NCBI GenBank assembly: GCA_937871295.1
Contig: CALMRE010000243.1
Coordinates: 1,027 to 65,026 of the forward strand
Reading direction: 5' to 3'
Source of the DNA: an uncultured bacterium
GTDB lineage: Bacteria; UBP6; UBA1177; JAKLFG01
Length of the DNA stretch: 64,000 nucleotides
The position numbers and the translations under genes were made by a program. Below are positions 4,895 to 52,529 of the stretch, piece by piece. Under the pieces are notes generated by a model. That model saw nothing but the letters and a program-made list of their open reading frames with translations. It was not told the origin of the DNA and searched no databases. How positions within the stretch are numbered: position 1 is the first letter of the stretch; each line of letters begins with the position of its first letter.

Positions 4895-6346
4895 ATGAGG
4901 ACCGAAATGCCGGCCGACACCCGCCCCAACATCCTGCTCGTCCTCGACTCGGCCCCCGAAGAACCGGGCGCGCCGAACCTCTTCAACGCGTGGGTGGCCG
5001 ATCTCATCCGCGAACTGCGCCGGTACTGCCGTCTGTCGATCTTCCATCCCGTCATATCGACCATCGGCCCCTTCTACCGTATGCGGCGCGAGTCGAAGGA
5101 AGGGATCGACCGCTTCGTCACCACGGTCCCCTACAAATACGCCTCCTTCTCCGAAACCTTCCGCAATCCGGCGATGGAGGAACTCTTCGCCGCGGTCATC
5201 GGCGAAAGCGATTTCGACCTCTGCCATATCGTATCGCTACGCAATCACTCGTTCGGCTATCCCCTCATCGCCCACGGCGCGGGACTGCCGCTCGCGCTGA
5301 CGGTCGCCGACGGCTGGCTCCGCTGCCCCCTCCGCTACCGGCGCGGCTGCGCCGACGGCTACAGCCCCCGCGACCACGCGTGCGACCTGCGGCTCTCCAA
5401 CTTCGTCGCGAGCCCCTTCTCCTTTCTCGCCACGAGCATCGAGGAACTCTTCAAGCCGCGCCGCAATCACTGGTGGTTCGAGGAGACGGGACGCTATTCC
5501 TTCTTCTACAACCGCGACCCGCTCGAACAGGTCTCCCGCGAAGCCCTGCGGCAACGCGACGCCCTCCTGCGCGAAATGCTCCCCTATGTGGACCGCTTCC
5601 ACTTCCTTTCCGAACACCTCCACCGCGCGTGGTACGGCGACCTGATACCGCCCGACCGCGTGACCGTCATGGCGCAGGGGATACCGGCCGCGCGGGTGAT
5701 CGACAGCCGCCCCTTCGAGATACACGGCGGCATCTCCTTCGGCTTCATCGGCGATCTCATCCCCGAAGAGGGTGTCGGCGAACTGATCGAGGCCTTCAAC
5801 GCGGTGCGCGATCGCGGCCTGCCCACCACGCTCCATCTGTACGGCGAACTCTATCACAACGACGACTACGCCCGGTGGCTCAAGAAACTCTGCCACAGTC
5901 CCGCCGTCACGTTCCACGGCGCGATCGACAACAGCCGTATCGGGGCGATACTCGACACCATCGATGCGCTCATCCTGCCGGCGCGCTGGCCGCGGCCCGA
6001 CACCTGGCTCGCGGCGCAGGCGATGGCCCGGCGCAAGGCGGTCATCGCGGCGGAGGGCACCGCGGCGGCCGAACTGGTCAGGAAGAAACGGCGCGGCGTG
6101 GTACTCAAGGAGACGACCCCCGCCGATATCGAACAGGTGGTCGCCGACCTTGAGATCGACCGGAAGAAGTTATATTATTTCATGCGCATCGCCGAAAGCG
6201 AACAGTTCCTCTCGATCACCGAGAACGTGCAGGAACTGCTGGCTCTTTATCTGGCGCATATGCGGCGGCCCGTCCGGGCCGAGGAAACGACGCTGACCCG
6301 GCGACTGGGCCGCAAGCGGGTCGAACGATTGAGAGGTACCGCATGA
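4895..6346 (+). CDS. glycosyltransferase family 4 (GT1-type C-terminal domain)
   Basis: 483-aa ORF. The C-terminal FGFIGDLIPEEGVGELIEAF...LHLYGE...ALILPARWP region resembles the GT4 Glycos_transf_1 domain. The start could instead be the ATG at 4907. Confidence 0.6.
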   Translation: MRTEMPADTRPNILLVLDSAPEEPGAPNLFNAWVADLIRELRRYCRLSIFHPVISTIGPFYRMRRESKEGIDRFVTTVPYKYASFSETFRNPAMEELFAAVIGESDFDLCHIVSLRNHSFGYPLIAHGAGLPLALTVADGWLRCPLRYRRGCADGYSPRDHACDLRLSNFVASPFSFLATSIEELFKPRRNHWWFEETGRYSFFYNRDPLEQVSREALRQRDALLREMLPYVDRFHFLSEHLHRAWYGDLIPPDRVTVMAQGIPAARVIDSRPFEIHGGISFGFIGDLIPEEGVGELIEAFNAVRDRGLPTTLHLYGELYHNDDYARWLKKLCHSPAVTFHGAIDNSRIGAILDTIDALILPARWPRPDTWLAAQAMARRKAVIAAEGTAAAELVRKKRRGVVLKETTPADIEQVVADLEIDRKKLYYFMRIAESEQFLSITENVQELLALYLAHMRRPVRAEETTLTRRLGRKRVERLRGTA

Positions 6347-9014: not shown

Positions 9015-9542
9015 ATGAAAGGTTTATCCACGCTTCTTGCCGCGACGCTCTTCTGGGGCATGCTCGCGGCGGCTGATGTCTATGTCAACGGCGTCAAGGC
9101 CGACGGCCTGACCGCGCAGGAATTCAAGGACTGCACGGTCAAATTCGACGACAAGGGAAGCGTCCACATCACCGCTCCGGGCGTCAAACTGCTCTCCGAA
9201 GCGCCGGTCGACCCGGCGAAACTATCGGCGACCTACTTCGTCGCCTTCACCCTCTCCCAGCCGGCCGCGGGGCCGATACGCCTCATCGTCAACGGCACCG
9301 AGGCCGACATCGTCAAACCGGGCGAGAAAACGAAGATCACCGAGATAACGAAGTTCCTGCGCAAGGGGGTCAACAAGGTGCTGGTGATGGCGGGACCCGA
9401 GAAGACCGCCGTGCCGGTGCAGTTGCTCCTCGGCGCCGGGAAGAACAGCGCCGGCAGTCTCGAACTCACCCCCTCGGTCGACAAACTGCTGCAACTCGCC
9501 GACAAGGGACTTTCCGAAACCTTCGACCTTACGGCCCAATAG
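9015..9542 (+). CDS. secreted hypothetical protein
   Basis: GGGAGG SD at 9004-9009 and a signal peptide (MKGLSTLLAATLFWGMLAAADV). Confidence 0.55.
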   Translation: MKGLSTLLAATLFWGMLAAADVYVNGVKADGLTAQEFKDCTVKFDDKGSVHITAPGVKLLSEAPVDPAKLSATYFVAFTLSQPAAGPIRLIVNGTEADIVKPGEKTKITEITKFLRKGVNKVLVMAGPEKTAVPVQLLLGAGKNSAGSLELTPSVDKLLQLADKGLSETFDLTAQ

Positions 9543-9554
9543 GAGGCGACCCGC

Positions 9555-10385
9555 ATGATATTCCCACACCGCATCCTTCCGGCGACGCTCGCCGCGCTTT
9601 TTTTCCTCGCCTGCGCCACCACCGGCGACAAGATGGTCAGCGACGAAACAAAGGGCGACAGTTACTACCAACTCGGCATAGCGGCGCTCAACAAGGGCGA
9701 TCTGGTCAAGGCGAAACTGCAGATCATGAAGGCGATAGAACTGGCGCCGGTGGTCCCCTACTATCATAATCATCTGGGGATCGTGTATCTGCAGGAACGC
9801 GACTTCGACCGCGCTCAGGCCTGTTTCGAACTCGCCTACAAACTTGACGGCATCTATTCCGACGCGCTCAACAACCTCGGTATCCTGTTCCTCATGAAAG
9901 GCGACATCACCAAGGCGAAGGAATACTTCATGCTGGTGCTCGCCGATCAGATATATCCCTATCCGCACTACGCCGAGACCAATCTCGGCCGCGCCTTCCG
10001 GCTGGAGAAGAACTACGCCGAGGCCCAGAAACATCTGGACAAGGCGCTGAAGTTGAAGGGCACTCACTGCGACGCCTACAAGGAACTGGCCCTTATGTAC
10101 GACGAACGGGGGGAACACGAGAAATCGGTGGAGAACTTCCGGAAGACGGTGCAGTACTGCCCGCGCCATGTCGAGGCGCTCTACCGCGGCGCGGTGAAAC
10201 TGCTGGTCCTCAAGGACACCGACACCGGCACCGCGTGGCTGCGGAGCTGTCTGGAACTGGAGCGCGCCAACACCGCCTCGATAGAGATCCCCTTCCTGCG
10301 GGAATGCGCCAATCTCGCGCGGCAGTACGGCGTCGCGCTCAAGGCGGTCGACGACGGCAAACAACAGATAGACGGCGGTTACTGA
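9555..10385 (+). CDS. TPR-repeat lipoprotein (PilF/PilW-like)
   Basis: Lipobox LFFLAC. There are multiple 34-aa TPR-like repeats (YYQLGIAALNKGDLVKAKLQIMKAIEL, YNNLGILFLMKGDITKAKEYF). Confidence 0.65.
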   Translation: MIFPHRILPATLAALFFLACATTGDKMVSDETKGDSYYQLGIAALNKGDLVKAKLQIMKAIELAPVVPYYHNHLGIVYLQERDFDRAQACFELAYKLDGIYSDALNNLGILFLMKGDITKAKEYFMLVLADQIYPYPHYAETNLGRAFRLEKNYAEAQKHLDKALKLKGTHCDAYKELALMYDERGEHEKSVENFRKTVQYCPRHVEALYRGAVKLLVLKDTDTGTAWLRSCLELERANTASIEIPFLRECANLARQYGVALKAVDDGKQQIDGGY

Positions 10386-10891: not shown

Positions 10892-12047
10892 CGGACCGGT
10901 CAAGGGCACCGCACTCATCACACTTCTGGACCAACTGCTTCGTCAGGAGGCGCGCGGCCGCATCGTCTTCACGCTCGACGGCAATTCGCGGTCGCTCTTC
11001 TTCGAGGATCGTCGCATCACCGGTTCGAGTTCCAACGATCCCAGCGATTATCTCGGTCAATATCTCATCAACGAAGGGGTCATCAATCTCGAACAGTTCA
11101 ACCGCGCCTACCAGACCCAACTCGAGACCGATGTCCGGATGGCGCAGGTGTTGCAACTCATCGGTCTGGCGCCGGTCGACAAACTGCGCGAAGCGATCAT
11201 CGCCAAAACTGTCGACACCGCCTTCCTCGTCTCTTCGTGGCAGGCCGGCTCGTGGGAATCGAACGACGCCTACCCCAAGGCGGTCAGCGGCGTCGAGATA
11301 AAACTGACGGTCGAGGATCTCTCGGCTCATCTGGTCAAGCGGCAGGAACAGTTCATGCGCATCATCCAGATGTTCCGGGAACTGGGCGACAGCCCCGCTA
11401 CGGCGATGAGCGACCGCGACACCTCGAACATCCGGAAACTCGACCTGATGATACTCAATCTCCTCTCCATCGGCAAAACGCTGCGCGAGACCCTCAACGC
11501 CCTGCCGGTCCACTTCTATGTCATGGCGCGCCACCTGCTCGATCTCTATCGCGAACACCTCCTCCTCCCGGGTCCCGGGACGCCTCTCAACGAGATGGAG
11601 ATATTCCAGCGGCTCACCGCCGCCAGCGGCGTTGAAAAGCCGAAGGACATAGAACAGATCTCGGCCGACGAAACGGCGAAGATATACCGCAGCGCCCACG
11701 AGGCGATGGATCGGAAAGACTACTGGAAGGCGGCGGCGCAGTTCCGTATCCTGTGCAACATCAACCCCCACAACATCGTGTTCAAGGACGCGCTCAACAA
11801 CGCCGAGTACCATTACACCCTTTCTTTCTACCGCGATATCGTCTCGCCGGCGACCCGCATCGTCAGGAATAATGCCGGCGGCATGCCGGTCGATCCGCTC
11901 GAACGGAGGATACTCGACCTGATGGAGGAACATTCCTTCACGGTGCGCGAGATCGTCGGCTATTTCGCCGACACGCTCTCCGAAGTGAAAATGCTCCACG
12001 CGCTCGAGAACCTGATCCGACGGAAACACCTCAAAGAGGAGAAATGA
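10884..12047 (+). CDS. DUF4388-domain protein
   Basis: The N-terminal GTALITLLDQLLRQEARGRIVFTLDG block matches the DUF4388 signature. 387 aa. Confidence 0.55.
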   Translation: MPSGPVKGTALITLLDQLLRQEARGRIVFTLDGNSRSLFFEDRRITGSSSNDPSDYLGQYLINEGVINLEQFNRAYQTQLETDVRMAQVLQLIGLAPVDKLREAIIAKTVDTAFLVSSWQAGSWESNDAYPKAVSGVEIKLTVEDLSAHLVKRQEQFMRIIQMFRELGDSPATAMSDRDTSNIRKLDLMILNLLSIGKTLRETLNALPVHFYVMARHLLDLYREHLLLPGPGTPLNEMEIFQRLTAASGVEKPKDIEQISADETAKIYRSAHEAMDRKDYWKAAAQFRILCNINPHNIVFKDALNNAEYHYTLSFYRDIVSPATRIVRNNAGGMPVDPLERRILDLMEEHSFTVREIVGYFADTLSEVKMLHALENLIRRKHLKEEK

Positions 12048-12883
12048 TGCGCGCCGCCGTCATACAATCCGACTGCTTCCTCGGCGATATCACCCGCAAT
12101 CTGTCGACCCACCTGCGGCTCGCCAAAGAGGCGGTGAAGGGGGGCGCGACGCTCGCGGTCTTCCCCGAACTGTCGCTGTCGGGGTATCTGCTCGAGGACC
12201 GCGTGAAGGATATCGCCCTCACCGCCCGCGCCGCGGCGGCTCTGTTCGATGACGCGGGACTGCCCGACACCGTCGTCGGCGTCGGTTTCCCCGAAAAGAC
12301 CCGCGGCGCGATCTACAACTCGTACGCACTCATCCGCTGCGGCGCGAAGAAAGCGGAACTCCTCGGCGTTCAGCGCAAGATAAATCTCCCGACCTACGGG
12401 ATGTTCGACGAAGCGCGCCATTTCCGCGCCGGTTCGTCGCTCTGCGCGTACGAACTGCCCGGCGGCGCCACCGCCGCCATCCTCATCTGCGAGGATATGT
12501 GGCACCCCGCCCTGTCGGTCTCGCTCGCGCAACTGCCCGACGGGATGCCGCACCTCCTCATCGTCCCGGCCGCCAGCCCCTCGCGCGGCTACCGCGGCAA
12601 ACGGCCCGCGAATCTCGAAGGGTGGGAACACAACGCCGAATATCTCGCCCGCGTCTACGGCGCCTCTACGCTCAACGCCCAGCGGGTCGGCGTCGAGGAC
12701 AGCCTCATCTTCGCCGGCGGCTCGGTGGCCACCGACCACGACGGTGTCATGAAGCGGGCCGACCTCTTCAAAGAAGAAATTCTTTTTGTCGACATCGATA
12801 TCGAGGCGCTCTCGCGGACCCGTGCCAAGGCGCCCGTCGTCTCGGCGCACGACCGCGAACTCCTCAGGAGTCTCTTTGCGTAG
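12044..12883 (+). CDS. carbon-nitrogen hydrolase (nitrilase superfamily), probably the glutaminase partner of NAD synthetase
   Basis: 279 aa. VFPELSLSGY and ILICEDMWHP carry the catalytic Glu and Cys of the CN-hydrolase fold. The gene sits immediately upstream of nadE. Confidence 0.75.
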   Translation: MMRAAVIQSDCFLGDITRNLSTHLRLAKEAVKGGATLAVFPELSLSGYLLEDRVKDIALTARAAAALFDDAGLPDTVVGVGFPEKTRGAIYNSYALIRCGAKKAELLGVQRKINLPTYGMFDEARHFRAGSSLCAYELPGGATAAILICEDMWHPALSVSLAQLPDGMPHLLIVPAASPSRGYRGKRPANLEGWEHNAEYLARVYGASTLNAQRVGVEDSLIFAGGSVATDHDGVMKRADLFKEEILFVDIDIEALSRTRAKAPVVSAHDRELLRSLFA

Positions 12884-12905
12884 GAAGGAGCCCCCGCCCC
12901 TCACT

Positions 12906-13733
12906 TTGCCGCCGCTCAACTGTCAACTGGCCCTCGACGCCCTTACCTTCTTCATCCGGCGCGAGACCGAACGGGCCGGGTTCGACGGCGTGGTGCTGGG
13001 CCTTTCGGGCGGCATCGATTCGGCGCTGGTCGCCTACCTCGCGGCGCGGGCGCTCGGCCCGAAGCGGGTGACGGGACTGCTCATGCCCTACCGCTCCTCG
13101 TCGAAGGGTTCGGTCGCCGACGCCAAAAAGATCGTCAAAGCGCTCGGTATCCGGCATCACCTGCTCGACATAACGGCCGCGGTCGACGGCTTTGAGAGCG
13201 GCCTCATGACCGCCCCCGACATACGCCGGGCGGGACGGCTCGGCAACGCGATGGCGCGGCTGCGGATGGTCGCGCTCTTCGACTATTCGCTCGCCCACCG
13301 CGCGATGGTGCTCGGCACCAGCAACAAAAGCGAGATAGCGCTCGGCTACGCGACGCTCTTCGGCGACAGCGCATCGGCGGTCAATCCGATCGGCGACCTC
13401 TACAAGAGCGATGTCTACGCCCTCTCGCGCCACCTCAAGATACCCGCGGCGCTCATCGACAAGGCCCCGTCGGCCGACCTGTGGGAAGGGCAGACCGACG
13501 AGGGGGAGATCGGTTTCCGCTACGCCGACATGGACCCGGTGCTCCACCAACTCCTCGACCGCCGCGAAACACCCGCCGCCGTTATCGCGCGGGGCGCCGC
13601 TCCCGAACTGGTCGGGTTCCTCTCGAAAAAAATGCTCGCGATGCACTATAAGCGCAGGATACCGGTCATCGCGAAGCTCGATACGCGGACCTTCGGGGTG
13701 GACTTCCTCTATGCAAAAGACATCCTTTCGTAG
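12906..13733 (+). CDS. nadE: NH3-dependent NAD+ synthetase
   Basis: GLSGGIDSALVAYL PP-loop and NadE-like body. There is no in-frame ATG. A TTG start at 12906 is proposed, downstream of the AGGAAGGAG SD at 12882-12890, so the start is uncertain. Confidence 0.7.
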   Translation: MPPLNCQLALDALTFFIRRETERAGFDGVVLGLSGGIDSALVAYLAARALGPKRVTGLLMPYRSSSKGSVADAKKIVKALGIRHHLLDITAAVDGFESGLMTAPDIRRAGRLGNAMARLRMVALFDYSLAHRAMVLGTSNKSEIALGYATLFGDSASAVNPIGDLYKSDVYALSRHLKIPAALIDKAPSADLWEGQTDEGEIGFRYADMDPVLHQLLDRRETPAAVIARGAAPELVGFLSKKMLAMHYKRRIPVIAKLDTRTFGVDFLYAKDILS

Positions 13734-18011: not shown

Positions 18012-19487
18012 ATGCGAAAGATACTATTCCTGTCGTTCATCCTCGGCGCGCTGATGCTGTCGGCCGCCGAAAAAAACCTCTTCATCGTGACAACCGATAA
18101 GATAGTCGGCTCGTCGGCGAAACTCGCCGAGTTCATCGACGCGAAGGAGGCGCGCGGGTTCACCGTAACGCTCGCCACCGAGAGCGACTACGGCGCAAAA
18201 GACAAGCAGGGCTTCGATCGGGCCGGCGCGATCCGCGCATGGCTCACGGAGAACACCGCACCGGGCGACTATCTGCTCCTCATCGGCGACGCCAACGCGC
18301 AGTACGGCGATGTTCCGATGTTCATCGTCTGGCCGCGCCACACCTACTCGGCCGACCAGTGCTTCGGCTTCGCGGTCGACTGCCGCGCCTTCGAAAGCGA
18401 CGCCCCCTACGCCGACCTCTCGGGCGACTGGGACCTAAACCAGAACGGGCAGTGGGGCGAACACGGGCTCGACGATGGCGTTGGCGGCTTCGATCTCGAC
18501 TACGAACTCATCGTCGGCCGCCTGTCGGTCCATTTCGACGACACGGGCGAACTCGACCGCATCCTCGGTCACGCCCTCGACTACATGCGCGCCCCGCAGG
18601 GTTCCATCGCATGGCGCAAGAAGATACTGCTCCCCGCCTCGTTCTACTATTTCAAGGGTCAGCAGATGCTCTCCTACACGGTGCTTAACGATATGGACGG
18701 GGCCGACACGGCCGAATGGTTCATCTACAATATCCTGTCGCAGCACGGCGGGTTCGATGTCACCCGGATGTACGAGAAGGAGGGGACGACCGTCTCCAAA
18801 TATGCGACCGATGTACCGCTGACGCGCGACAACCTCCAGAGCGAATGGCCGAAGGGCTACGGGATGGTCTTCTGGTTCGGTCACGGGCTCGATAAGGAGG
18901 TGGCGCGGACCTTCTGGAACGACGACAACGAGGACGGCGAAGTGCAGAACGAGGAGTTGCGGCAGCCGCTCTTCATCCACTCCGACGATGCGCCCGCCAT
19001 CGGGGCGCAAAGCCCCGCCTTCGTCGTGGCGGTCTCGTGCGAGGTGGGCAGCGCCCAGACGCCGTGGAACCTGACCCACGCGCTCCTCACCGAGGGGTCC
19101 GCTATCGGGATGATCGGTTCGACCAATGTGACACCGGGCGACATGACCGACTACAGCGATTTCGAGAGCGAACTCGATACCTCGACCTACGGCGCGACCA
19201 ATCTGGGGGTCAATTTCTTCGATGAGTTGATGAACGGGGAGGTAGCGGCCAAGGTCTTCGCCGATGTGCGGCGGACCGTCGGGACCTCTCCCTCCATCGA
19301 GACCTACGCCGGGAAGATGATGCTCAACTACTACGGCGACCCGACCTTATCGCTTAACAGTTCCGCCGCCGACGCGCCGGATGAAGAAATCACCCCCGAC
19401 GAAGATACGGCCACCGACACCGAAACGCCCGACATCGATACCGCCGACAATTCATCCGACGGCGGATGTGCGCTAACATTGTTGTAG
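18012..19487 (+). CDS. peptidase family C25 (gingipain-like) cysteine protease
   Basis: Signal peptide. LLLIGD..., VFWFGHGL and VAVSCEVGSAQ resemble the C25 His/Cys dyad context. The C-terminus ends abruptly (...SSDGGCALTLL) and the stop codon lies inside the TIR of the adjacent palindromic element. Confidence 0.55.
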   Translation: MRKILFLSFILGALMLSAAEKNLFIVTTDKIVGSSAKLAEFIDAKEARGFTVTLATESDYGAKDKQGFDRAGAIRAWLTENTAPGDYLLLIGDANAQYGDVPMFIVWPRHTYSADQCFGFAVDCRAFESDAPYADLSGDWDLNQNGQWGEHGLDDGVGGFDLDYELIVGRLSVHFDDTGELDRILGHALDYMRAPQGSIAWRKKILLPASFYYFKGQQMLSYTVLNDMDGADTAEWFIYNILSQHGGFDVTRMYEKEGTTVSKYATDVPLTRDNLQSEWPKGYGMVFWFGHGLDKEVARTFWNDDNEDGEVQNEELRQPLFIHSDDAPAIGAQSPAFVVAVSCEVGSAQTPWNLTHALLTEGSAIGMIGSTNVTPGDMTDYSDFESELDTSTYGATNLGVNFFDELMNGEVAAKVFADVRRTVGTSPSIETYAGKMMLNYYGDPTLSLNSSAADAPDEEITPDEDTATDTETPDIDTADNSSDGGCALTLL

Positions 19488-19643
19488 GGGCGCGCCAACG
19501 GCACGCCCTGCGTTTTTCAAACACCCACCGACGCTTCGCGTCACCTCCCTGCGACAGGGAGGCACCACGCGGAAGGCCCCCTGATGCAGGGGGCTTGCGG
19601 GGGTGTAGAGTTTAGGGCGTCCCGATGGGAACGCCCCTACAAT
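19482..19643. repeat. 161-bp palindromic MITE/REP-like element
   Basis: An 11-bp perfect terminal inverted repeat, TTGTAGGGGCG at 19482-19492 and CGCCCCTACAA at 19632-19642, with 13 of 15 matching when extended. Two internal perfect hairpins lie at 19544-19562 and 19576-19594. A TTTTT run sits at 19513-19517. Confidence 0.45.
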
Positions 19644-19704
19644 ATTGAATTTCTCCCCTTCCCCGCTATAATCCACCCAACGACCGGACGAAAGGGAGGA
19701 TATC

Positions 19705-21129: not shown

Positions 21130-21149
21130 GACCACAGAAATCCCGTCAA

Positions 21150-21169
21150 GCCCCCTTTGACAAGGGGGC
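21150..21169. other. GC-rich perfect hairpin (GCCCCCTT-tgac-AAGGGGGC) at the junction of the lipoprotein gene and the AT-rich segment
   Basis: 8-bp perfect inverted repeat with no following U-tract. It shares the CCCT..AGGG motif with the hairpins at 19544 and 19576. Confidence 0.4.
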
Positions 21170-21191
21170 GGAAGGAAAAATGCCTAGAAAA

Positions 21192-21488
21192 TTAAAAGAG
21201 AAAGCGACTTGCGAGATATATGGCCAAAACAGCCATCACTATATTGGCGACTAGAAAAGTCAACAAGCCCAAACGAAAAAACAAAGTCAGTTTAGAATTT
21301 CGTGAAAACACTCCCAGCGTCACGCATGCTACAACCACAATAAAAGTTTGAGCCGGTGCAGCAAACACAAGCAGGTAATGCATTTGGATATTAGCGATCC
21401 AGAAAGACAGCAGAATATAATCATAAATCAATAACAGGGGAACAACCAAATATGACCATACCCGCGGATCGGGGCGTAAAATACGCAT
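21192..21488 (-). CDS. small 3-TM membrane protein, hypothetical, in AT-rich DNA
   Basis: 98 aa starting at M33 of the track ORF (MRILRPDPRVWSYLVVPLLLIY...). The upstream part of the track ORF is the duplicated malQ tail read through. Confidence 0.4.
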   Translation of the reverse strand: MRILRPDPRVWSYLVVPLLLIYDYILLSFWIANIQMHYLLVFAAPAQTFIVVVACVTLGVFSRNSKLTLFFRLGLLTFLVANIVMAVLAIYLASRFLF

Positions 21489-21531
21489 GAGTTTCGAACG
21501 CTTTTCTTCGTCCACTATTTCACTCGCTGTG

Positions 21532-21612
21532 CTCATTCCGGTTGTAGAGCCACGAGAGTTCGGCGAGTCCCCACGCCGCCTCATCGCGAATATCGTCGTG
21601 CGTGAACCGGAA
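21532..21612. repeat. decayed duplicate of the malQ 3' coding end (direct repeat partner of 23275-23355)
   Basis: About 92% identity over the 81-bp core. Weaker similarity continues on both sides, roughly 21523-21630, and the differences in this copy are mostly G-to-A. Confidence 0.8.
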
Positions 21613-21659
21613 AATCCCGTTATATTGATGAGATACGGTCATTTTGCCCATGTGTTTCA

Positions 21660-21767
21660 TCAATTACCCATCAATTACCAAGATGTCGATGAACCTTATA
21701 AATATTAGCATGTTACCACTGTCCCTGCTGACCATGATCCTTGTTCTGTCAATTACCCATCAATTAC
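21660..21767. repeat. pair of 19-bp perfect direct repeats TCAATTACCCATCAATTAC (21660-21678 and 21749-21767), each with an internal CAATTAC duplication
   Basis: The second copy lies 4 nt downstream of the AlbA_2 gene stop. Confidence 0.7.
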
Positions 21768-21770
21768 TGC

Positions 21771-23237
21771 TCAAGCCCAGAATGGAACATACTTCATAAG
21801 TTTCCTCGCCGCATCTCCATCGAAGGGTCTGATCATACCAGCATCTACCGCCTCGCGAATGTAGCGAGAGATAATAGCCTTGTTCTTTTCTTCCACTCCC
21901 AACCGTTCACGCAATGAGGCGTTGGTTAAGTAATCGCGCATGACCCACTTCAAGCAAGCGTGCAAATAACAAGCCCTTATGCGATCCTCTTTGTCCATGC
22001 GGTTCAACGGCTTGTGCGCAAACAGCACCACTCTGGTGAAATCACCCGAAACATCAGTCAACGGAGCGGGCAGTTGGTAGAGTTCTGTCTGAAAAACCAC
22101 CTTGTCCCAACCACTGCCACGCTCTTCACAGATACCGATACGCCGCATCAGCGAAGCAAGCGATTCGTTTCGCGACTTCGGCGGGGTGTCGACAAAACGC
22201 TGCGCATCCACCAATGGCACCCCCGGATTGGTTATCTCGATACGATCGGAAAAGATTTCGACCATCGGCCCGGCGCCGGTAACAAAGTAGTCTTGATGAA
22301 TAAGGGCATTCGCCACCAACTCGCGGACCGCCAGTTGGGGAAACATCGGAACGGTCTTTCGTAACGCCTGTCCAATCACCTCATTAGAGGGCACCAATCC
22401 ATTGACGAAACCGATCAATCCCTCGAATCCGCAGGCATATCCCTTGCCACCGACCTGTTCTTTGACCGTCTCGACACGGCTTGCGCCTTTATACTGGATG
22501 ACCCGCATCGCTTTGCGCTGAAGTGAGTGAAAATCTTTCAGTTGCTTGGCAAAAAGGATGGCACCCATATTCGTAATGTTCCAACCGCCCGCATCGCAGG
22601 GGCAGATCAATCGGTCCTCAGCCAACGCTTTCAGAATACCGGCACGACCTTCCGGCAACGGTCGCTTGAGCAAATCAAAGTAGGATGGATAGTCAAGCGT
22701 CCGAAGGACATCATCATCGTGCATTCGCTCTGCGGCAATTCCGTCCTCAAATGGAGTGCGATCAAATATACGCCACAACTCCCGTTCCTTTTCCGAGAAG
22801 TCTTTGAGCCGCTTCTTATAAGAACCCACACGGATGTATTCATTGTTCTGGAATTGAACCGGGTGTCTGAATGCTCTGCCGATCTCCAATAATACGGTAT
22901 GCTTTCCCTCCATGTCGATCTCATGGAAACGGAAGGTTATCTTCGGCGTAAGAAGCTTCAGAAGCCAGTTCTCTAACTCTTCGTTACCGACCTTCGTTTT
23001 TGAGGGAAAGAATGTTGTTCCCACGACCTCATGCGTGGAATCGACAACTCCCCACAGCAAATATGCGTTGGCTTTGCCACACAATGCGGCGGAATTAGAA
23101 AGGGCCGAAATATATTCTCCCAGTTCTTGTGGTTCGGCATAATTCATCTTAAATTCTACCCATTCAATCTCTTTGGGCAGTTTGAGAAGTTCGCCGAGCA
23201 AACTTATTAAATATTCTTGCCCCCGATCACTCGGCAT
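21771..23237 (-). CDS. AlbA_2 (Schlafen-like divergent AAA) + HATPase_c_4 domain protein, of the kind often annotated as a putative transcriptional regulator or RecG-related ATP-binding protein
   Basis: Started at M64 of the track ORF (MPSDRGQEYLIS...), the ATG at 23235-23237. EIEWVEFKMNYAEP...AALCGKANAYLLWGVVDSTHEVVG matches the AlbA_2 pattern. RELVANALIHQDYFVTGAGPMVEIFSDRIEITNPG matches HATPase_c_4. The gene lies in AT-rich DNA. Confidence 0.7.
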   Translation of the reverse strand: MPSDRGQEYLISLLGELLKLPKEIEWVEFKMNYAEPQELGEYISALSNSAALCGKANAYLLWGVVDSTHEVVGTTFFPSKTKVGNEELENWLLKLLTPKITFRFHEIDMEGKHTVLLEIGRAFRHPVQFQNNEYIRVGSYKKRLKDFSEKERELWRIFDRTPFEDGIAAERMHDDDVLRTLDYPSYFDLLKRPLPEGRAGILKALAEDRLICPCDAGGWNITNMGAILFAKQLKDFHSLQRKAMRVIQYKGASRVETVKEQVGGKGYACGFEGLIGFVNGLVPSNEVIGQALRKTVPMFPQLAVRELVANALIHQDYFVTGAGPMVEIFSDRIEITNPGVPLVDAQRFVDTPPKSRNESLASLMRRIGICEERGSGWDKVVFQTELYQLPAPLTDVSGDFTRVVLFAHKPLNRMDKEDRIRACYLHACLKWVMRDYLTNASLRERLGVEEKNKAIISRYIREAVDAGMIRPFDGDAARKLMKYVPFWA

Positions 23238-23262
23238 TCTTGCCCTCCCCCTACAATGAATC

Positions 23263-24768
23263 CTATTTCTCGTCGTGCTCGTTCCGGTTGTAGAGCCACG
23301 AGAGTTCGGCGAGTCCCCACGCCGCTTCGTCGCGGATGTCATCGTGCGTGAACCGGAAGGTCCAGTTGTGGAGCCCCATCGTCCCCGGCGTATTGAACCG
23401 CGCCTCAGACCCCATCCCCAGCACATCCTGCATCGGCATCACCGCGTACTGCGCCACACTCCCGTAGGCAAGCCGGATGAGCGCCCAAGCGGGGCTATCG
23501 CCCCACCGCAGGCCGAGATAACGGTTTATCTCCCGACGGTCGTGCTCGTAGATGGAGCGATACCACCCCATCACCGTGTCGTTGTCATGCGTCCCGGTGT
23601 AGACGGCGCAGTTGGTGGTCGTGTAGTTGTGCGGCAAAAAGGCATTTTCGGGCGCGTCGAATCCGAATTGGAGCACCTTCATTCCGGGGAAACCGAAGTG
23701 CTCGCGCAGTTCGACCACATCCTCCGATATGACGCCGAGATCCTCGGCGATGACCGGCAGTTCGCCGAAATGTGTTTTAAGCGCGTCGAAGAGTTTCTTG
23801 CCGGGGCTCTTTTTCCATTTCCCGTTCACCGCCGTTTCATCGCACGCGGGCACCGCCCAGCACGCCGCGAAGCCGCGGAAGTGATCGATGCGGACGATGT
23901 CGAAGAGTTTGAACGACTGCGCGAAGCGCCTCTTCCACCAGTCGAAACCGTCCTCCTCCATCCGCTTCCAGTCGTAGAGCGGGTTGCCCCACAACTGGCC
24001 GGTCGGCGAGAAGTAGTCGGGCGGCACCCCCGCGAGGAAGGTCCGCTTGCCGTTCTTGAGGAGAAAATAGTCCTGATGGGCCCAGACATCCACGCTGTCG
24101 AACGAAACGAATATCGGGATGTCGCCCACGATGCGGATGCCGCGTTCGTTGGCGTATCTCTTGAGCGCCCCCCACTGCCGGTGGAAGAGCCACTGGATGA
24201 ACTGGTGGCGCAGGATATCGTCGGCCGATTCCTGCATGAAGCGGGCGAGCGACGCCGGACGCCGCTCCCGGAACTCTATCGGCCACTCGTGCCAGCAGGT
24301 GGTGCCGAACTTCTCGCGGAGCGCCGCGTAGAGCGCGTAGTCGCCGAGCCAGTGGCTGTTGTCGGTGCGGAACTTCGCCATCTCGTCGAACCGGTCGCGC
24401 GTTTTCTGAAAAGTCGCGAAAGCGGCCCGCAGCAACGCATCGGAGAGATCGCGCGCACTATCGAAGTTGACCCGGCGCGGATCGGGCGCCGGGACCTTGA
24501 AGGGTGATGCGTCGGCGATAAGTCCCTCTTCCGCGAGGGTGTCGGCGTCTATCAGCCACGGGTTCCCGGCGAAGGCCGAATGTGAATTGTAGGGACAGCC
24601 GTCGTAGGAGGTGGGGGTGAGCGGCAGTATCTGCCAGAGCGTCTGCTTGCCGGTGGCCAACCAGTCGACGAACCGGCGCGCCGCATCGCCGAAGGTGCCG
24701 ATGGGGCCGGGGCCGGGCAGGGCCGCGGGGTGAAGAATGATGCCGCTGGAACGATGAAGAGTGGTCAT
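23263..24768 (-). CDS. malQ: 4-alpha-glucanotransferase (amylomaltase, GH77)
   Basis: 501 aa. GIILHPAALPG...QILPLTPT...NPLYDW is typical of MalQ. Confidence 0.9.
   Translation of the reverse strand: MTTLHRSSGIILHPAALPGPGPIGTFGDAARRFVDWLATGKQTLWQILPLTPTSYDGCPYNSHSAFAGNPWLIDADTLAEEGLIADASPFKVPAPDPRRVNFDSARDLSDALLRAAFATFQKTRDRFDEMAKFRTDNSHWLGDYALYAALREKFGTTCWHEWPIEFRERRPASLARFMQESADDILRHQFIQWLFHRQWGALKRYANERGIRIVGDIPIFVSFDSVDVWAHQDYFLLKNGKRTFLAGVPPDYFSPTGQLWGNPLYDWKRMEEDGFDWWKRRFAQSFKLFDIVRIDHFRGFAACWAVPACDETAVNGKWKKSPGKKLFDALKTHFGELPVIAEDLGVISEDVVELREHFGFPGMKVLQFGFDAPENAFLPHNYTTTNCAVYTGTHDNDTVMGWYRSIYEHDRREINRYLGLRWGDSPAWALIRLAYGSVAQYAVMPMQDVLGMGSEARFNTPGTMGLHNWTFRFTHDDIRDEAAWGLAELSWLYNRNEHDEK
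23275..23355. repeat. native malQ 3' end, the direct-repeat partner of 21532-21612
   Basis: Contiguous with the malQ body; see the repeat at 21532. Confidence 0.8.
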
Positions 24769-49973: not shown

Positions 49974-51197
49974 ATGAGAAAACTGCTCGTGAGCTACGCG
50001 CTCGACCCCCAGACACTTATTCCGGTCGGCCATCTGGCCGAGTCGGAGGGACGGGTGTTCTTTGAGTACGATCCTTCGTTCATCGAACGGGGCGTCGAAC
50101 TTTCGCCCTTCTTTCTGCCGCTCAAACCGGGACTCGTCGAACATACCGACCGGGGCTTCGGACCACTGTGGGGGGTATTCGACGATTCCCTTCCCGACGG
50201 CTGGGGGCTTTTGCTGATGGACCGCTATTTCCGGAAACGCGGACTCTCATTGCGGACCATTTCACCGCTCGACCGGCTCGCGTTCCTCGGTATGCGGACG
50301 ATGGGAGCGCTCACCTATCACCCACCGGCGGAACGCGACGAAGAGACCCACCGGACGCTTGATCTGCAAGAACTCGCGGAACAGTCGCTGAAGATACTGA
50401 ACGGCGAAGAATCGGTCGTTCTCTCTCAACTTCTCGCCGCCGGCGGCAGTCCCGGCGGAGCGCGGCCGAAGGTGCTCGTCGGCTATGACCCCCGAAAAAA
50501 AGCGTTGCTGTCGGGAGAAGCTCTTCTGCCGGAGGGGTATGAACACTGGCTGGTGAAATTCGGGGCGAAAGAGGACCCGGCCGATAGCGCGGCGATAGAA
50601 TTTGCCTATGCGCTGATGGCGCGCACCGCCGGTATCGCGTTGCCCGAGACGCGACTCTTAAGCGGAGGCAGAACGGAACGCTATTTCGGTAGCAAGCGCT
50701 TCGATCGCGATGCGCGGAACCGCCGTTACCACATACATACTTTCGGGAATCTGGTCCACGCCGACTTCCGCATACCATCGGTCGATTACACCGAACTTCT
50801 GCGGGTCACCGCCCTCATGACGCGTGATCAGAGCGCCGTCCGTGAGATGTTCCGCCGGATGGTGTTCAATGTCTTGGCCCACAACCGCGATGACCATGTG
50901 AAAAATTTCTCGTTCATGCTCGACCTTGATCAACCCGGCTGGCGCGTGTCGCCCGCCTACGACCTCACTTTCGCCGAAGGACCGGGAGGCGAGCACAGCA
51001 TGAGTGTCGACGGCAACGGAAAAGCTCCGGGGGTGCCGGACATTTTCCGGGTCGCCGAAAAAAGCGGCATCGGGAAGGCGGTCGCACGCCGTATCGTCGA
51101 TGAGGTGGCGGCGGCGGTCGGGCAATGGGCGCGGTTCGCCGACGAGGCGGGCGTCTCCAAAGGTTCAATGAAGAACATCGCCAAGTACTTGCAGTAA
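49974..51197 (+). CDS. hipA: HipA-family serine/threonine kinase toxin
   Basis: P-loop-like GGSPGGARPKVLV and catalytic loop LAHNRDDHVKNFSFMLD, which is the HipA D-x-H-x-K-N motif. Confidence 0.8.
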   Translation: MRKLLVSYALDPQTLIPVGHLAESEGRVFFEYDPSFIERGVELSPFFLPLKPGLVEHTDRGFGPLWGVFDDSLPDGWGLLLMDRYFRKRGLSLRTISPLDRLAFLGMRTMGALTYHPPAERDEETHRTLDLQELAEQSLKILNGEESVVLSQLLAAGGSPGGARPKVLVGYDPRKKALLSGEALLPEGYEHWLVKFGAKEDPADSAAIEFAYALMARTAGIALPETRLLSGGRTERYFGSKRFDRDARNRRYHIHTFGNLVHADFRIPSVDYTELLRVTALMTRDQSAVREMFRRMVFNVLAHNRDDHVKNFSFMLDLDQPGWRVSPAYDLTFAEGPGGEHSMSVDGNGKAPGVPDIFRVAEKSGIGKAVARRIVDEVAAAVGQWARFADEAGVSKGSMKNIAKYLQ

Positions 51198-51259
51198 ACT
51201 TCTTGCCTTAGATATCGCCGGTGCTATAATCACGGCATCGTCCTTTTGTACTAGGAGAC

Positions 51260-51910
51260 ATGATGGAAGATCGATCCGAAGACAAACGCAATCGCGGTAA
51301 GACATTTTTATATCTGGTTCTCTGTGTCATTTTCTTTCTTGGTGTCTATTTTCTCTTTTTTACCGAAAAAGATAGAATCATCAGCGCAGTTAGGAGAGGC
51401 GATGTTCAGACGATCAAGGCAATGTTAGAAAGCGGGACTGACCCCAATACAATATATACGCCTTTTTTGGGAACGATTACGAAGAAACAGTATCTTGAAA
51501 AGAACTTCTCATTACTAATTTTGGCTATAAGGAACAATAATAACACTTACGAAACAACGAAAGTTCTGCTGGAACATGGAGCCTCCATAGCTAACACTAA
51601 ATCCCCAGGTAGTTCCATTTTGTACTTTGCCTTTGCCAATCTCGATGTGGTCAAGTTGTTGGTGTCATACAATGCCGATCCTTTGATGAAAGATAGGCAT
51701 GGTAACAATTTATTACATGTGATGCCATGGAATCTAGCTCAATTTCCGGAACAACTTAAGGTTGCGAAGTATTATATCGACGCAGGTGTCGATCCTTTTT
51801 CTAAAAACAATTCCGGGCAAGAAGCATTGGCCAGATTAAAAGAAATGCATGCGCAGGCACATCAAATGTTGCTGGATTATATAGCAAGCAAGAAAGGCAC
51901 CGCAAAATGA
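51260..51910 (+). CDS. ankyrin-repeat protein with an N-terminal TM helix, in markedly AT-rich DNA
   Basis: 2 to 3 ANK-like repeats (KLLVSYNADPLMKDRHGNNLLHV; YYIDAGVDPFSKNNSGQEAL). Its GC content is visibly far below that of its neighbours. Confidence 0.6.
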   Translation: MMEDRSEDKRNRGKTFLYLVLCVIFFLGVYFLFFTEKDRIISAVRRGDVQTIKAMLESGTDPNTIYTPFLGTITKKQYLEKNFSLLILAIRNNNNTYETTKVLLEHGASIANTKSPGSSILYFAFANLDVVKLLVSYNADPLMKDRHGNNLLHVMPWNLAQFPEQLKVAKYYIDAGVDPFSKNNSGQEALARLKEMHAQAHQMLLDYIASKKGTAK

Positions 51911-52001
51911 ATTGCTTTCATCCCCGGCGGTAGTGAACCGTCCAGCGGCCGCCGCGATGAAGTCACACCTTGCATGACGAAGCGCCCGCTTCAAAAAAAA
52001 C

Positions 52002-52042: not shown

Positions 52043-52119
52043 CGGGGTGTAGCTCAGCTGGCTAGAGTGCTTGCTTTGGGAGCAAGTGGCCGGAGGTTCA
52101 AGTCCTCTCACCCCGACCA
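52043..52119 (+). tRNA. tRNA-Pro (anticodon TGG)
   Basis: Cloverleaf with acceptor CGGGGTG/CACCCCG, anticodon loop TTTGGGA, and an encoded CCA. Confidence 0.85.
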
Positions 52120-52122
52120 GCT

Positions 52123-52199
52123 GTGCCCGTAGCTCAGTTGGATAGAGCAACTGACTTCTAATCAGTAGGCCAGAGGTTCGATTCCTCTCGGGCACGCCA
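52123..52199 (+). tRNA. tRNA-Arg (anticodon TCT)
   Basis: Acceptor GTGCCCG/CGGGCAC, anticodon loop CTTCTAA, and an encoded CCA. Confidence 0.85.
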
Positions 52200-52224
52200 G
52201 GTTGTTTTTTCACATTGCGAGTAT

Positions 52225-52300
52225 GGTGGGTGTAGTTCAATGGTAGAGCACCGGATTGTGATTCCGGGCGTTGTGGGTTCGAGTCCCATTACCCACCCCA
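52225..52300 (+). tRNA. tRNA-His (anticodon GTG)
   Basis: Extra G at -1, anticodon loop TTGTGAT, discriminator C, and an encoded CCA. Confidence 0.85.
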
Positions 52301-52308
52301 TTTTTGGT

Positions 52309-52384
52309 GGGCCCTTAGCTCAGTTGGTAGAGCAACTGACTCTTAATCAGTGGGTCGAAGGTTCGAATCCTTCAGGGCCTACCA
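52309..52384 (+). tRNA. tRNA-Lys (anticodon CTT)
   Basis: Acceptor GGGCCCT/AGGGCCT, anticodon loop CTCTTAA, and an encoded CCA. Confidence 0.85.
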
Positions 52385-52444
52385 TCCATATTTCAAGCGT
52401 ACATTCCCCATCGATAGATACCGAACGGCAAAAATTCGGTCGTT

Positions 52445-52529
52445 GCGAGAGTGGCGGAATTGGCAGACGCACTGGACTTAGGATCCAGCGGGTAACACCT
52501 TGGGGGTTCGACTCCCCCCCCTCGCACCA
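52445..52529 (+). tRNA. tRNA-Leu (anticodon TAG), class II with a long variable arm
   Basis: GCGAGAGTGGCGGAATTGGCAGACGC 5' end, anticodon loop CTTAGGA, a long extra arm, and an encoded CCA. Confidence 0.85.

Follow-up and report, generated by a model that had tools for sequence, protein, structure and literature searches.

The gene behind malQ and its protein

The stretch of DNA analysed here (the window) is 64 kb from an uncultured bacterium, and its own numbering is used throughout. At 21771..23237 on the reverse strand it carries a gene for a 488-aa protein (ATG at 23237, TGA at 21771-21773), which is followed by a pair of direct repeats. An earlier note, made from the sequence alone, had placed an AlbA_2 domain at the N-terminus and a HATPase_c_4 domain at the C-terminus of the product. 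Both of the peptide blocks it quoted lie within this open reading frame (ORF), and hidden Markov model searches bore out both domains: Pfam SLFN_AlbA_2 (PF04326) matched residues 23-144 (E 3.3e-18, 66.8 bits; cut-off 25.3) and HATPase_c_4 (PF13749) matched residues 321-405 (E 2.2e-21, 76.1 bits; cut-off 26). The gene is an intact prokaryotic Schlafen (pSlfn) gene of the kind termed Schlatpase with a winged helix-turn-helix (Schlatpase-wHTH) or HisKinase-HTH class, a family that has already been described.

The protein is laid out as an SLFN nuclease domain (residues ~20-145), a winged-helix-like linker (~170-225), a GHKL ATPase-like domain (~245-406) and a C-terminal winged helix (~416-485). 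A first AlphaFold2 (AF2) model, built from 40 close homologues, was poor (predicted local distance difference test score, pLDDT, of 61) and was replaced by one to which a second clade had been added (mean pLDDT 87.5, predicted template modelling score 0.74). The latter shows an SLFN-type alpha+beta domain, the winged-helix-like linker, the GHKL domain and a C-terminal winged helix of helix-helix-helix-strand-strand order (helices 416-432, 439-446 and 450-465, strands 469-471 and 483-485), with pLDDT values in this last part of ~82-95 in 10-residue blocks. Foldseek returned 3LMM as the best whole-chain match of the model (E 9e-20), followed by the nuclease domains of SLFN5/11/13/14 and then by histidine-kinase CA domains, while winged-helix matches were weak (prob 0.94-0.96, E 0.16-0.22). 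Pfam gave no helix-turn-helix (HTH) match in the protein, NCBIfam had no model for it, and PADLOC returned only a weak match of a model associated with prokaryotic Argonautes (pAgo) to the linker and GHKL region.

The Ex4ExK nuclease motif is kept as E23-IEWV-E28-F-K30, with a downstream acidic residue (D66, in GVVD), and the GHKL E-x3-N motif is present as R-E306-LVA-N310, accompanied by conserved NPG (337-339) and RGSG (373-376) motifs. Across an alignment of 51 homologues from two clades that are ~50% identical, E23-x4-E28-x-K30, N310, NPG and RGxG are invariant, and D66, E306 and, in the last helix, N452, S457, R458 and I460 are nearly so. The window protein has every family-invariant residue, and its ORF is full length. 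'RecG C-terminal' is the historical name of PF13749, and source annotations frequently call such proteins RecG-like DNA helicases. We rejected that assignment since Pfam found no DEAD or Helicase_C domain, and the authors who described TrlG also called it a misnomer (PMC7554251). An ABC-ATPase N-domain and a PrrC/HEPN-like nuclease are absent as well, as Pfam, NCBIfam and PADLOC show SLFN and GHKL only.

The gene follows malQ (23263..24768, reverse strand; a GH77 4-alpha-glucanotransferase), which ends 25 nt upstream of the Schlatpase ATG. This gap holds a strong ribosome-binding site, GGGGGAGGG, and no terminator-like site was found between the two genes, which are probably co-transcribed in this genome. 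An island of ~2.1 kb (21177-23262) surrounds the gene and is low in GC, at 0.483 compared with 0.609 in the window and 0.629 in malQ; the gene's GC content at third codon positions (GC3) is 0.56, against 0.84 for malQ. Four close relatives, reached through the 90% cluster of malQ, have a ~90% identical malQ and lack the Schlatpase gene (L007, L008, L069 and L070; such labels denote homologue or relative loci). Low GC and GC3 together with absence from these relatives mark the island DNA as foreign. Neither hsdM, hsdS nor hsdR occurs anywhere in the window, and the earlier description of a gene standing alone in horizontally acquired DNA near malQ holds. PADLOC gave no match on the ten flanking genes (~9 kb), and an exact-sequence look-up of the window proteins returned no contigs.

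Homologues and the half-site pairs that accompany them

We found at least 8000 homologues, of which the best 120 supplied the identity figures; these are 71-77% identical to the window protein and almost all 488 or 496 aa long. Their hosts include Chloroflexia, Gammaproteobacteria, Nitrospirales, Thermoanaerobaculia, Desulfobacteria, Geomonas, Wenzhouxiangella and others. Over many bacterial phyla and Methanothrix, the closest homologues reach identities of 66-79%, and among species-representative genomes those of Methanothrix and Methanotrichaceae reach 70% and 75%. Such identity across phyla and domains means recent, repeated horizontal transfer.

In type I restriction-modification (R-M) operons the gene lies between hsdS and hsdR (L001, L005, L013, L016, L018, L020, L024, L025 and others), and its start codon overlaps the hsdS stop codon (ATGA; e.g., L001 and L005). 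Neighbour clustering over ~57 distinct loci placed hsdS beside the gene in 26, hsdM in 20 and hsdR in ~20. The HsdR and HsdM proteins of these operons are likewise 64-87% identical across phyla (66-80% for HsdR), and the whole operon is thus a promiscuous module. Two of the operons carry further genes between hsdM and hsdS, namely a SIR2-like gene, DUF87, PRTase-CE and an NADAR-HsdS fusion in L005 (1203-8004) and an M78 peptidase with DUF4411 in L001 (5015-6594).

Other homologues lie in EcoEI-type type I loci, with Eco57I-like methyltransferases, SNF2/PLD helicases or AAA_21/SMC ATPases, or in BREX-like loci, and mobile copies occur in 102 plasmid records, a P2-like Burkholderia phage and Streptococcus satellite phages. 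These neighbourhoods agree with the earlier suggestion that proteins of this two-domain architecture recur in mobile or defence contexts, and the homologues are not housekeeping-syntenic. About 12 intact orphans stand among housekeeping genes as the window copy does (L010, L012, L014, L015, L023, L030-32, L034, L035 and L053). One of them, L014, retains the 3' tail of hsdS upstream and 11 hsdR codons downstream, and nucleotide homology between the window and L001 extends 114 nt past the stop codon into the spacer between the gene and hsdR. Frameshifted or truncated copies were found at L033, L036, L046, L048, L049, L052, L057 and L061.

The two direct repeats behind the window gene (21653-21678 and 21742-21767) are 26 nt long and 88% identical, with an exact match over 19 bp, and their 15-nt core, TTGATGGGTAATTGA, occurs exactly twice in 64 kb, against 0.02 occurrences expected by chance. 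Each contains a pair of tandem 11-bp half-sites on the reverse strand. Site 1 (21746..21767) reads GTAATTGATGG GTAATTGACAG and starts 3 nt after the stop codon; site 2 (21657..21678) reads GTAATTGATGG GTAATTGATGA and lies 89 bp downstream of site 1. A central element between them, GGTAACATGCTAATATTTATAAGG (21694..21717, reverse strand), aligns with a spacer motif conserved in 36 units, which takes the form GTAACATATTGAAAATA in the 488-aa subfamily, to which the window belongs, and TAGAATCAATGACTTAG in the 496-aa subfamily and GC-type loci. A -10-like TAnAAT hexamer appears in the TAGAATCAATGACTTAG form only, as a weak match from a relaxed promoter scan.

The unit is a property of the family. 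In nearly every locus the first pair starts 0-8 nt past the stop codon, or overlaps it in the 496-aa subfamily, and the hsdR start codon of R-M operons comes 10-25 nt after the end of the second pair. The start-to-start spacing of the pairs is 87-90 bp in 22 of 32 scored loci and 78-80, 99-100, 108 or 130-131 bp in the others, a ladder with a step of about one helical turn. Site pairs also lie beside all 12 intact orphans and beside the copies on a Providencia conjugative plasmid and in phage Musica. The unit is upstream of the gene in L010 and L033, with L010 having a unit (9693-9813) on both sides of the gene. The earlier note had reported 19-bp direct repeats behind the gene, and exactly two are present in the window; as att sites or insertion scars, though, we rejected them, since a pair lies beside nearly all homologues whatever the context, which makes them a family-wide cis element. 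We also rejected a structured RNA or riboswitch, as Rfam gave no hit at E<=1 and the predicted fold was weaker than that of shuffled sequences (z = +1.38). The half-site motif was found in no searchable paper.

Several individual loci show variations on this arrangement. In L033 the unit stands directly before a Schlatpase start, and in L001 (8001-8015 and 9592-9606), as in most R-M loci, Schlatpase and HsdR both begin M-T-T-D (ATGACCACCGAC...), which suggests that the unit and the start-codon context were duplicated between the two genes. A Bifidobacteriaceae metagenome-assembled genome (MAG) has five tandem half-site pairs of two types (TATGTAA and TATGTGA) after its homologue (L045 11446-11700); these may be operators for two paralogous binders. 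On a Providencia rettgeri conjugative NDM plasmid (L071 8473-10676), the homologue and its site pair are followed downstream by an unannotated hsdR-like start (MSNVGQRERATQNRIVQFF...). The gene table of the plasmid has a gap at this point, and the start probably belongs to an hsdR pseudogene.

The sequence of the half-sites shifts by protein clade in step with the putative recognition helix (residues 452-462). The half-site AATTGAYGG goes with the helix N-K-x-x-V-S-R-Y, ACTTGAYGG with N-I/L-A-x-A-S-R-L, TCTTTGAYGG with N-S-A-x-A-S-R-L-I-K, ATTTGACKG with N-A-A-M-V-S-R-I, ATGTGAYGG with N-Y-S-x-A-S-R-I-I-A, and GCTTGATCG with N-Q-A-Q-V-S-R-V. We infer from these sequences that the C-terminal winged helix binds the site pairs. 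A broader proposal is that Schlatpase-wHTH proteins are sequence-specific DNA binders with co-evolving operators, that a tetramer loops the hsdR promoter, and that gene and operator travel together; we put this forward tentatively and at rather less than even odds. If gene and operator do travel together, the module would be functional wherever it landed, which would account for the intact orphans and for the phage and plasmid copies.

Origin and likely role of the window copy

Beyond site 2 lies a displaced duplicate of the last 33 codons of malQ (21523..21621, reverse strand; ...FRFTHDDIRDEAAWGLAELSWLYNRNEHSE*), the other copy being at 23269-23367 within malQ itself. The duplication is 99 nt long and 89% identical, with a 44-nt identical core, and it brackets the Schlatpase gene and its repeat unit. 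A derived His codon is common to the two copies (NRNEH..., against NRNERQE in L007, L008, L069 and L070), the differences between them are mostly synonymous, and the stop codon of the distal copy is at the same position as in the relatives, so both come from one allele or from sister alleles. A 41-codon chimeric ORF (21517-21642, reverse strand) starts with ATGACC just past site 2 and runs in frame into the malQ duplicate; it sits where hsdR would start and is probably meaningless. A search for an hsdR remnant past site 2 of the window ended with a match to ATGACC only, which is too little for a claim.

The 3' flank of malQ is variable in the lineage. Upstream synteny, with a nucleoside transporter and glycosyltransferases, is kept in the four relatives, and each has different DNA after the malQ stop codon. 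In L007 and L008 the slot holds a hypothetical gene and a YoeB/Phd toxin-antitoxin pair (L007 3409-5092), in L069 a low-GC gene with an FRG domain (5030-5261; Pfam E 3e-4 on a 77-aa fragment) and in L070 a gene for a 226-aa cysteine-rich protein; synteny with the relatives returns at the C25-peptidase gene (window 18012-19487). This variation argues that the Schlatpase gene lies in a hypervariable hotspot, and the malQ 3' flank is seemingly a hotspot for defence and toxin-antitoxin cargo in this lineage. The junctions of L069 and the window are alike, with a G-rich Shine-Dalgarno sequence followed by AAGAATG.

Repeats were also seen at the edges of the variable region. A terminator-like 39-nt hairpin, AAATCCCGTCAAGCCCCCTTTGACAAGGGGGCGGAAGG (21138..21176), forms the left border of the island and is 100% identical to two copies in L070 (4820-4858 and 5632-5669) that flank the variable gene in inverted orientation, whereas the window and L070 are only ~90% identical outside it. 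It looks like a REP-like (repetitive extragenic palindromic) or MITE-like (miniature inverted-repeat transposable) element, or a conserved terminator, at hotspot borders. An element of 31-33 nt, ~91-94% identical between loci (window 19615-19645, L007 5070-5102, L008 5014-5046, L070 4782-4812), is a second hotspot-associated repeat in the region downstream of malQ, at a varying distance from malQ.

The island itself contains only the Schlatpase gene, the malQ fragment and, at the far end, a low-GC ORFan for a small hydrophobic protein (21192..21488, reverse strand; 98 aa from an ATG at 21488). The ORFan has no Pfam, NCBIfam or PADLOC match and no homologue among 5.8 billion proteins or in metagenome contigs. 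We rejected it as a membrane partner effector on these grounds, and it may not be a gene. No integrase, transposase, or tyrosine or serine recombinase is encoded in the island, which does not look like a recognisable mobile element; the cassette looks instead like a fragment lifted from a type I R-M operon. Elsewhere in the window, and unrelated to the Schlatpase gene, five clustered tRNA genes (Pro, Arg, His, Lys and Leu; 52043-52529) adjoin a low-GC stretch (51001-52000, GC 0.46).

Long, imperfect target duplications flank 4 of the ~12 orphans: 99 nt in the window, 96+28 nt in L010, 83 nt x3 in L012 and 40 nt in L031. The R-M stubs, the spacer homology and the variable ends together suggest recombination anchored in host homology rather than the action of a dedicated element. 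Two of these loci have features of their own. In L012 (Methanothrix), the 3' end of a frameshifted tyrosine-recombinase gene occurs three times (9798-9880, 11681-11763 and 12869-12951) at 66-76% identity, and these copies keep the Schlatpase cassette and a DUF5677 gene apart, an arrangement that looks like a stacking of cassettes at the 3' end of the recombinase gene. In L010 (an Acidobacteriota chromosome), the cassette is flanked by a ~155-nt duplication (9516-9670 and 11605-11762, with matching blocks of 96 and 28 nt) that runs from the 3' end of a hydrolase gene across the intergenic region into the first codons of a BNR gene.

What, then, is the window copy? The explanation that we favour, with a probability of roughly 0.6, is that it is an intact Schlatpase-wHTH orphaned from an R-M operon, a predicted ATP-switched RNase effector whose winged helix sits on its own half-sites. 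The gene and its 3' cis unit alone would have been copied from an hsdS-X-hsdR operon and have landed downstream of malQ, leaving the 99-nt duplication of the malQ 3' end; recombination via malQ homology is a more probable route than a dedicated transposase. By analogy with characterised relatives, ATP binding at the GHKL domain would drive oligomerisation and so assemble the active Schlafen nuclease. On an infection cue, the nuclease may cut tRNA or other RNA and stop translation, acting as an abortive-infection or back-up effector.

The half-sites could add a second layer to this scheme. Four half-sites would suit a tetramer, which might form a loop or bracket of ~89 bp around the promoter-like element that lies directly upstream of hsdR in R-M operons. 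The protein may thus be effector and controller at once, or may be parked on its own locus. It is possible that in R-M operons the nuclease is held inactive on its own locus until infection releases the protein and, more speculatively, that release from DNA is itself the activating step, caused for instance by anti-restriction DNA mimics or host-DNA damage. The window copy probably acts alone in this genome.

Several observations weigh against this explanation. The co-variation of half-sites and recognition helices is confounded with phylogeny, there being one site class per protein clade. No strict sigma-70 promoter match was found in the window unit, and a shared promoter would not be expected since the loci span bacteria and archaea. 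The unit lies downstream of the gene, and its copy in phage Musica has no co-oriented gene behind it, so that control of a downstream gene cannot be its sole role. The orphan in the window has no partner genes beside it. Flanking duplications are missing in 8 of the 12 orphans, so the route of insertion was not uniform. Among pSlfns, defence was seen only with DUF262 and Ig-like fusions, and the HisKinase fusions tested gave no protection in E. coli (PMC13056530).

An alternative, which we regard as unlikely, is that the protein is a transcription factor only, in which the Schlafen and GHKL domains sense a ligand or nucleic acid; it would control hsdR in R-M operons and be a leftover regulator in the window. 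The operator-like pairs bracketing a promoter-like element directly upstream of hsdR fit such a role, as does the winged helix; many source annotations read 'predicted HTH transcriptional regulator', and type I R-M regulators that bind direct repeats exist, such as RptR of type I R-M islands (PMC12255303). A pure regulator does not account for a nuclease triad and ATP-binding residues that are invariant across clades only ~50% identical, or for orphan, phage and plasmid copies that are intact and keep their sites in the absence of hsdR, and relatives with the same supradomain are demonstrated tRNases. The earlier note had offered a single-gene defence or abortive-infection module or an element-encoded regulator; both are compatible with our findings, and both may be true.

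It is also conceivable, if improbable, that the window gene has no function and came along as a hitch-hiker, being a piece of a decayed R-M operon that was caught before disabling mutations arose. The solitary position of the gene in 64 kb without hsd genes would be in keeping with this, as would the adjoining ORFan and pseudogene fragment and the frameshifted or truncated copies at several other loci. On the other side stand the full-length ORF with all of the family-invariant residues, the strong ribosome-binding site in the 25-nt gap after malQ, and the 22-bp sites, both of which are perfect to the consensus in their core despite the 11% divergence of the flanking malQ duplicate. None of the alternatives fits as well as an orphaned, intact effector, and the regulator and the dead relic rank next.

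A self-mobilising element, in which the protein recombines at the repeat pairs and yields long target duplications, is very unlikely. The long imperfect duplications at orphans in four unrelated genomes, the site pairs on both sides of the gene in L010 and the extreme horizontal spread are what one would look for, but most loci have sites on one side only and in direct orientation, the cassette ends are not fixed (stubs of hsdS and hsdR remain in L014 but are absent from the window), R-M operons hold the gene at a constant position, most orphans show no duplication at all, and neither Schlafen nor GHKL domains are known to perform recombinase chemistry. An assembly artefact is scarcely credible: the contig comes from a MAG and the 44-nt identical malQ core could mislead a short-k assembler into a chimeric join, but such a join would not create the unique junction of Schlatpase spacer and malQ fragment (~21621-21642), and similar duplications occur in independent assemblies, including the chromosome-level L010 and L012.

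The gene itself adds little, being one more copy of the commonest bacterial Schlafen class, whose role in defence is putative, and the family and its general mechanism were already published in 2025-2026. Genes of this class have a fixed place, between hsdS and hsdR, in a type I operon that has spread over bacterial phyla and methanogens at ~70-80% protein identity. The new lead is the conserved, helically phased and co-varying set of four half-sites. The site pairs give a handle on what the HTH of this pSlfn class senses or controls, and on why HisKinase pSlfns failed outside their native locus. If it is true that the protein controls hsdR, that would make a new kind of control over type I restriction.

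Comparison with known systems

In the EcoprrI type I R-M locus, the place between hsdS and hsdR belongs to the PrrC anticodon nuclease, and the homologues described here occupy the same genomic slot. A shared logic may be proposed, in which a latent tRNA nuclease backs up the restriction enzyme. PrrC is an unrelated protein, with an ABC-type ATPase and a HEPN-like nuclease, so that the likeness is one of position and possibly of function, and the window copy lacks an R-M partner. Integrase-borne islands at the 3' end of a gene offer a likeness of another kind, in that flanking direct repeats of the 3' end are present here, whereas a recombinase gene is absent.

The closest comparison is with pSlfns, which are phage-defence tRNases with HisKinase and HisKinase-HTH fusions as the commonest classes (PMC13056530); HisKinase-HTH is the second commonest composition, at 19.2% (Perez Taboada et al., Nat Microbiol 2026, PMC13056530). 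Members of this class have the domain order of the window protein, that is, a Slfn nuclease with Ex4(E/D)xK, then a histidine-kinase-like ATPase and finally an HTH, and show a patchy, defence-linked spread. Single-gene pSlfns defend via tRNA cleavage (PMC13056530; PMC13552941), and an Enterococcus Schlafen is a single-gene abortive-infection defence (PMC13552941). The defending members carry other sensors (Ig-like, DUF262), and neither the cis element nor the hsdS-hsdR slot figures in that account (PMC13056530); the window copy, moreover, lies outside any defence island. Schlafen genes carrying a minimal histidine kinase plus a wHTH likewise sit inside BREX loci, in at least 1017 taxa, and have been proposed as back-up effectors (PMC12839542).

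The statement in the earlier note that proteins of this architecture have no established mechanism has been overtaken by this description of the class and by work on the pAgo fusion RzAgo, whose SLFN+GHKL 'Schlatpase' supradomain forms a tetramer on ATP and cleaves tRNA (bioRxiv 10.64898/2026.05.29.728809). This SLFN-pAgo likewise matches PF04326 and PF13749, and its E314/N318 correspond to E306/N310 of the window protein. The same paper mentions stand-alone Schlatpase genes with a short C-terminal HTH and reports exchange of Schlatpases with type I R-M systems and an HTH tail in more than 90% of such proteins. The window protein differs from RzAgo in having no Argonaute core or guide-RNA sensing, with a winged helix in place of the pAgo sensor.

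TrlG of Photorhabdus laumondii, an AlbA_2 and HATPase_c_4 protein that halts growth at 36 C (PMC7554251), has both Pfam domains in common with the window protein. Since loss of TrlG function relieves the arrest, TrlG is growth-inhibitory when activated. Its distribution is patchy, and one homologue lies beside type I R-M genes on a Yersinia plasmid. TrlG differs in that its operon has three genes, the other two encoding a PHP-like phosphatase and a small regulator, and in having temperature as its trigger. DIP2311 of Corynebacterium diphtheriae (PDB 3LMM, from structural genomics), the best structural match, also matches in sequence over the GHKL region (E 1.6e-8), but it is 583 aa long and only ~16% identical to the window protein.

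As for the site pairs, the C proteins of type II R-M systems and RptR are likewise DNA-binding proteins inside an R-M locus with repeated operators at a restriction or defence promoter. Each of them is a small dimer of the Xre HTH type whose targets, palindromes or repeats, lie upstream of its own gene, whereas the window protein is a 488-aa nuclease-ATPase with a winged helix, and its tandem direct repeats lie downstream of the gene.

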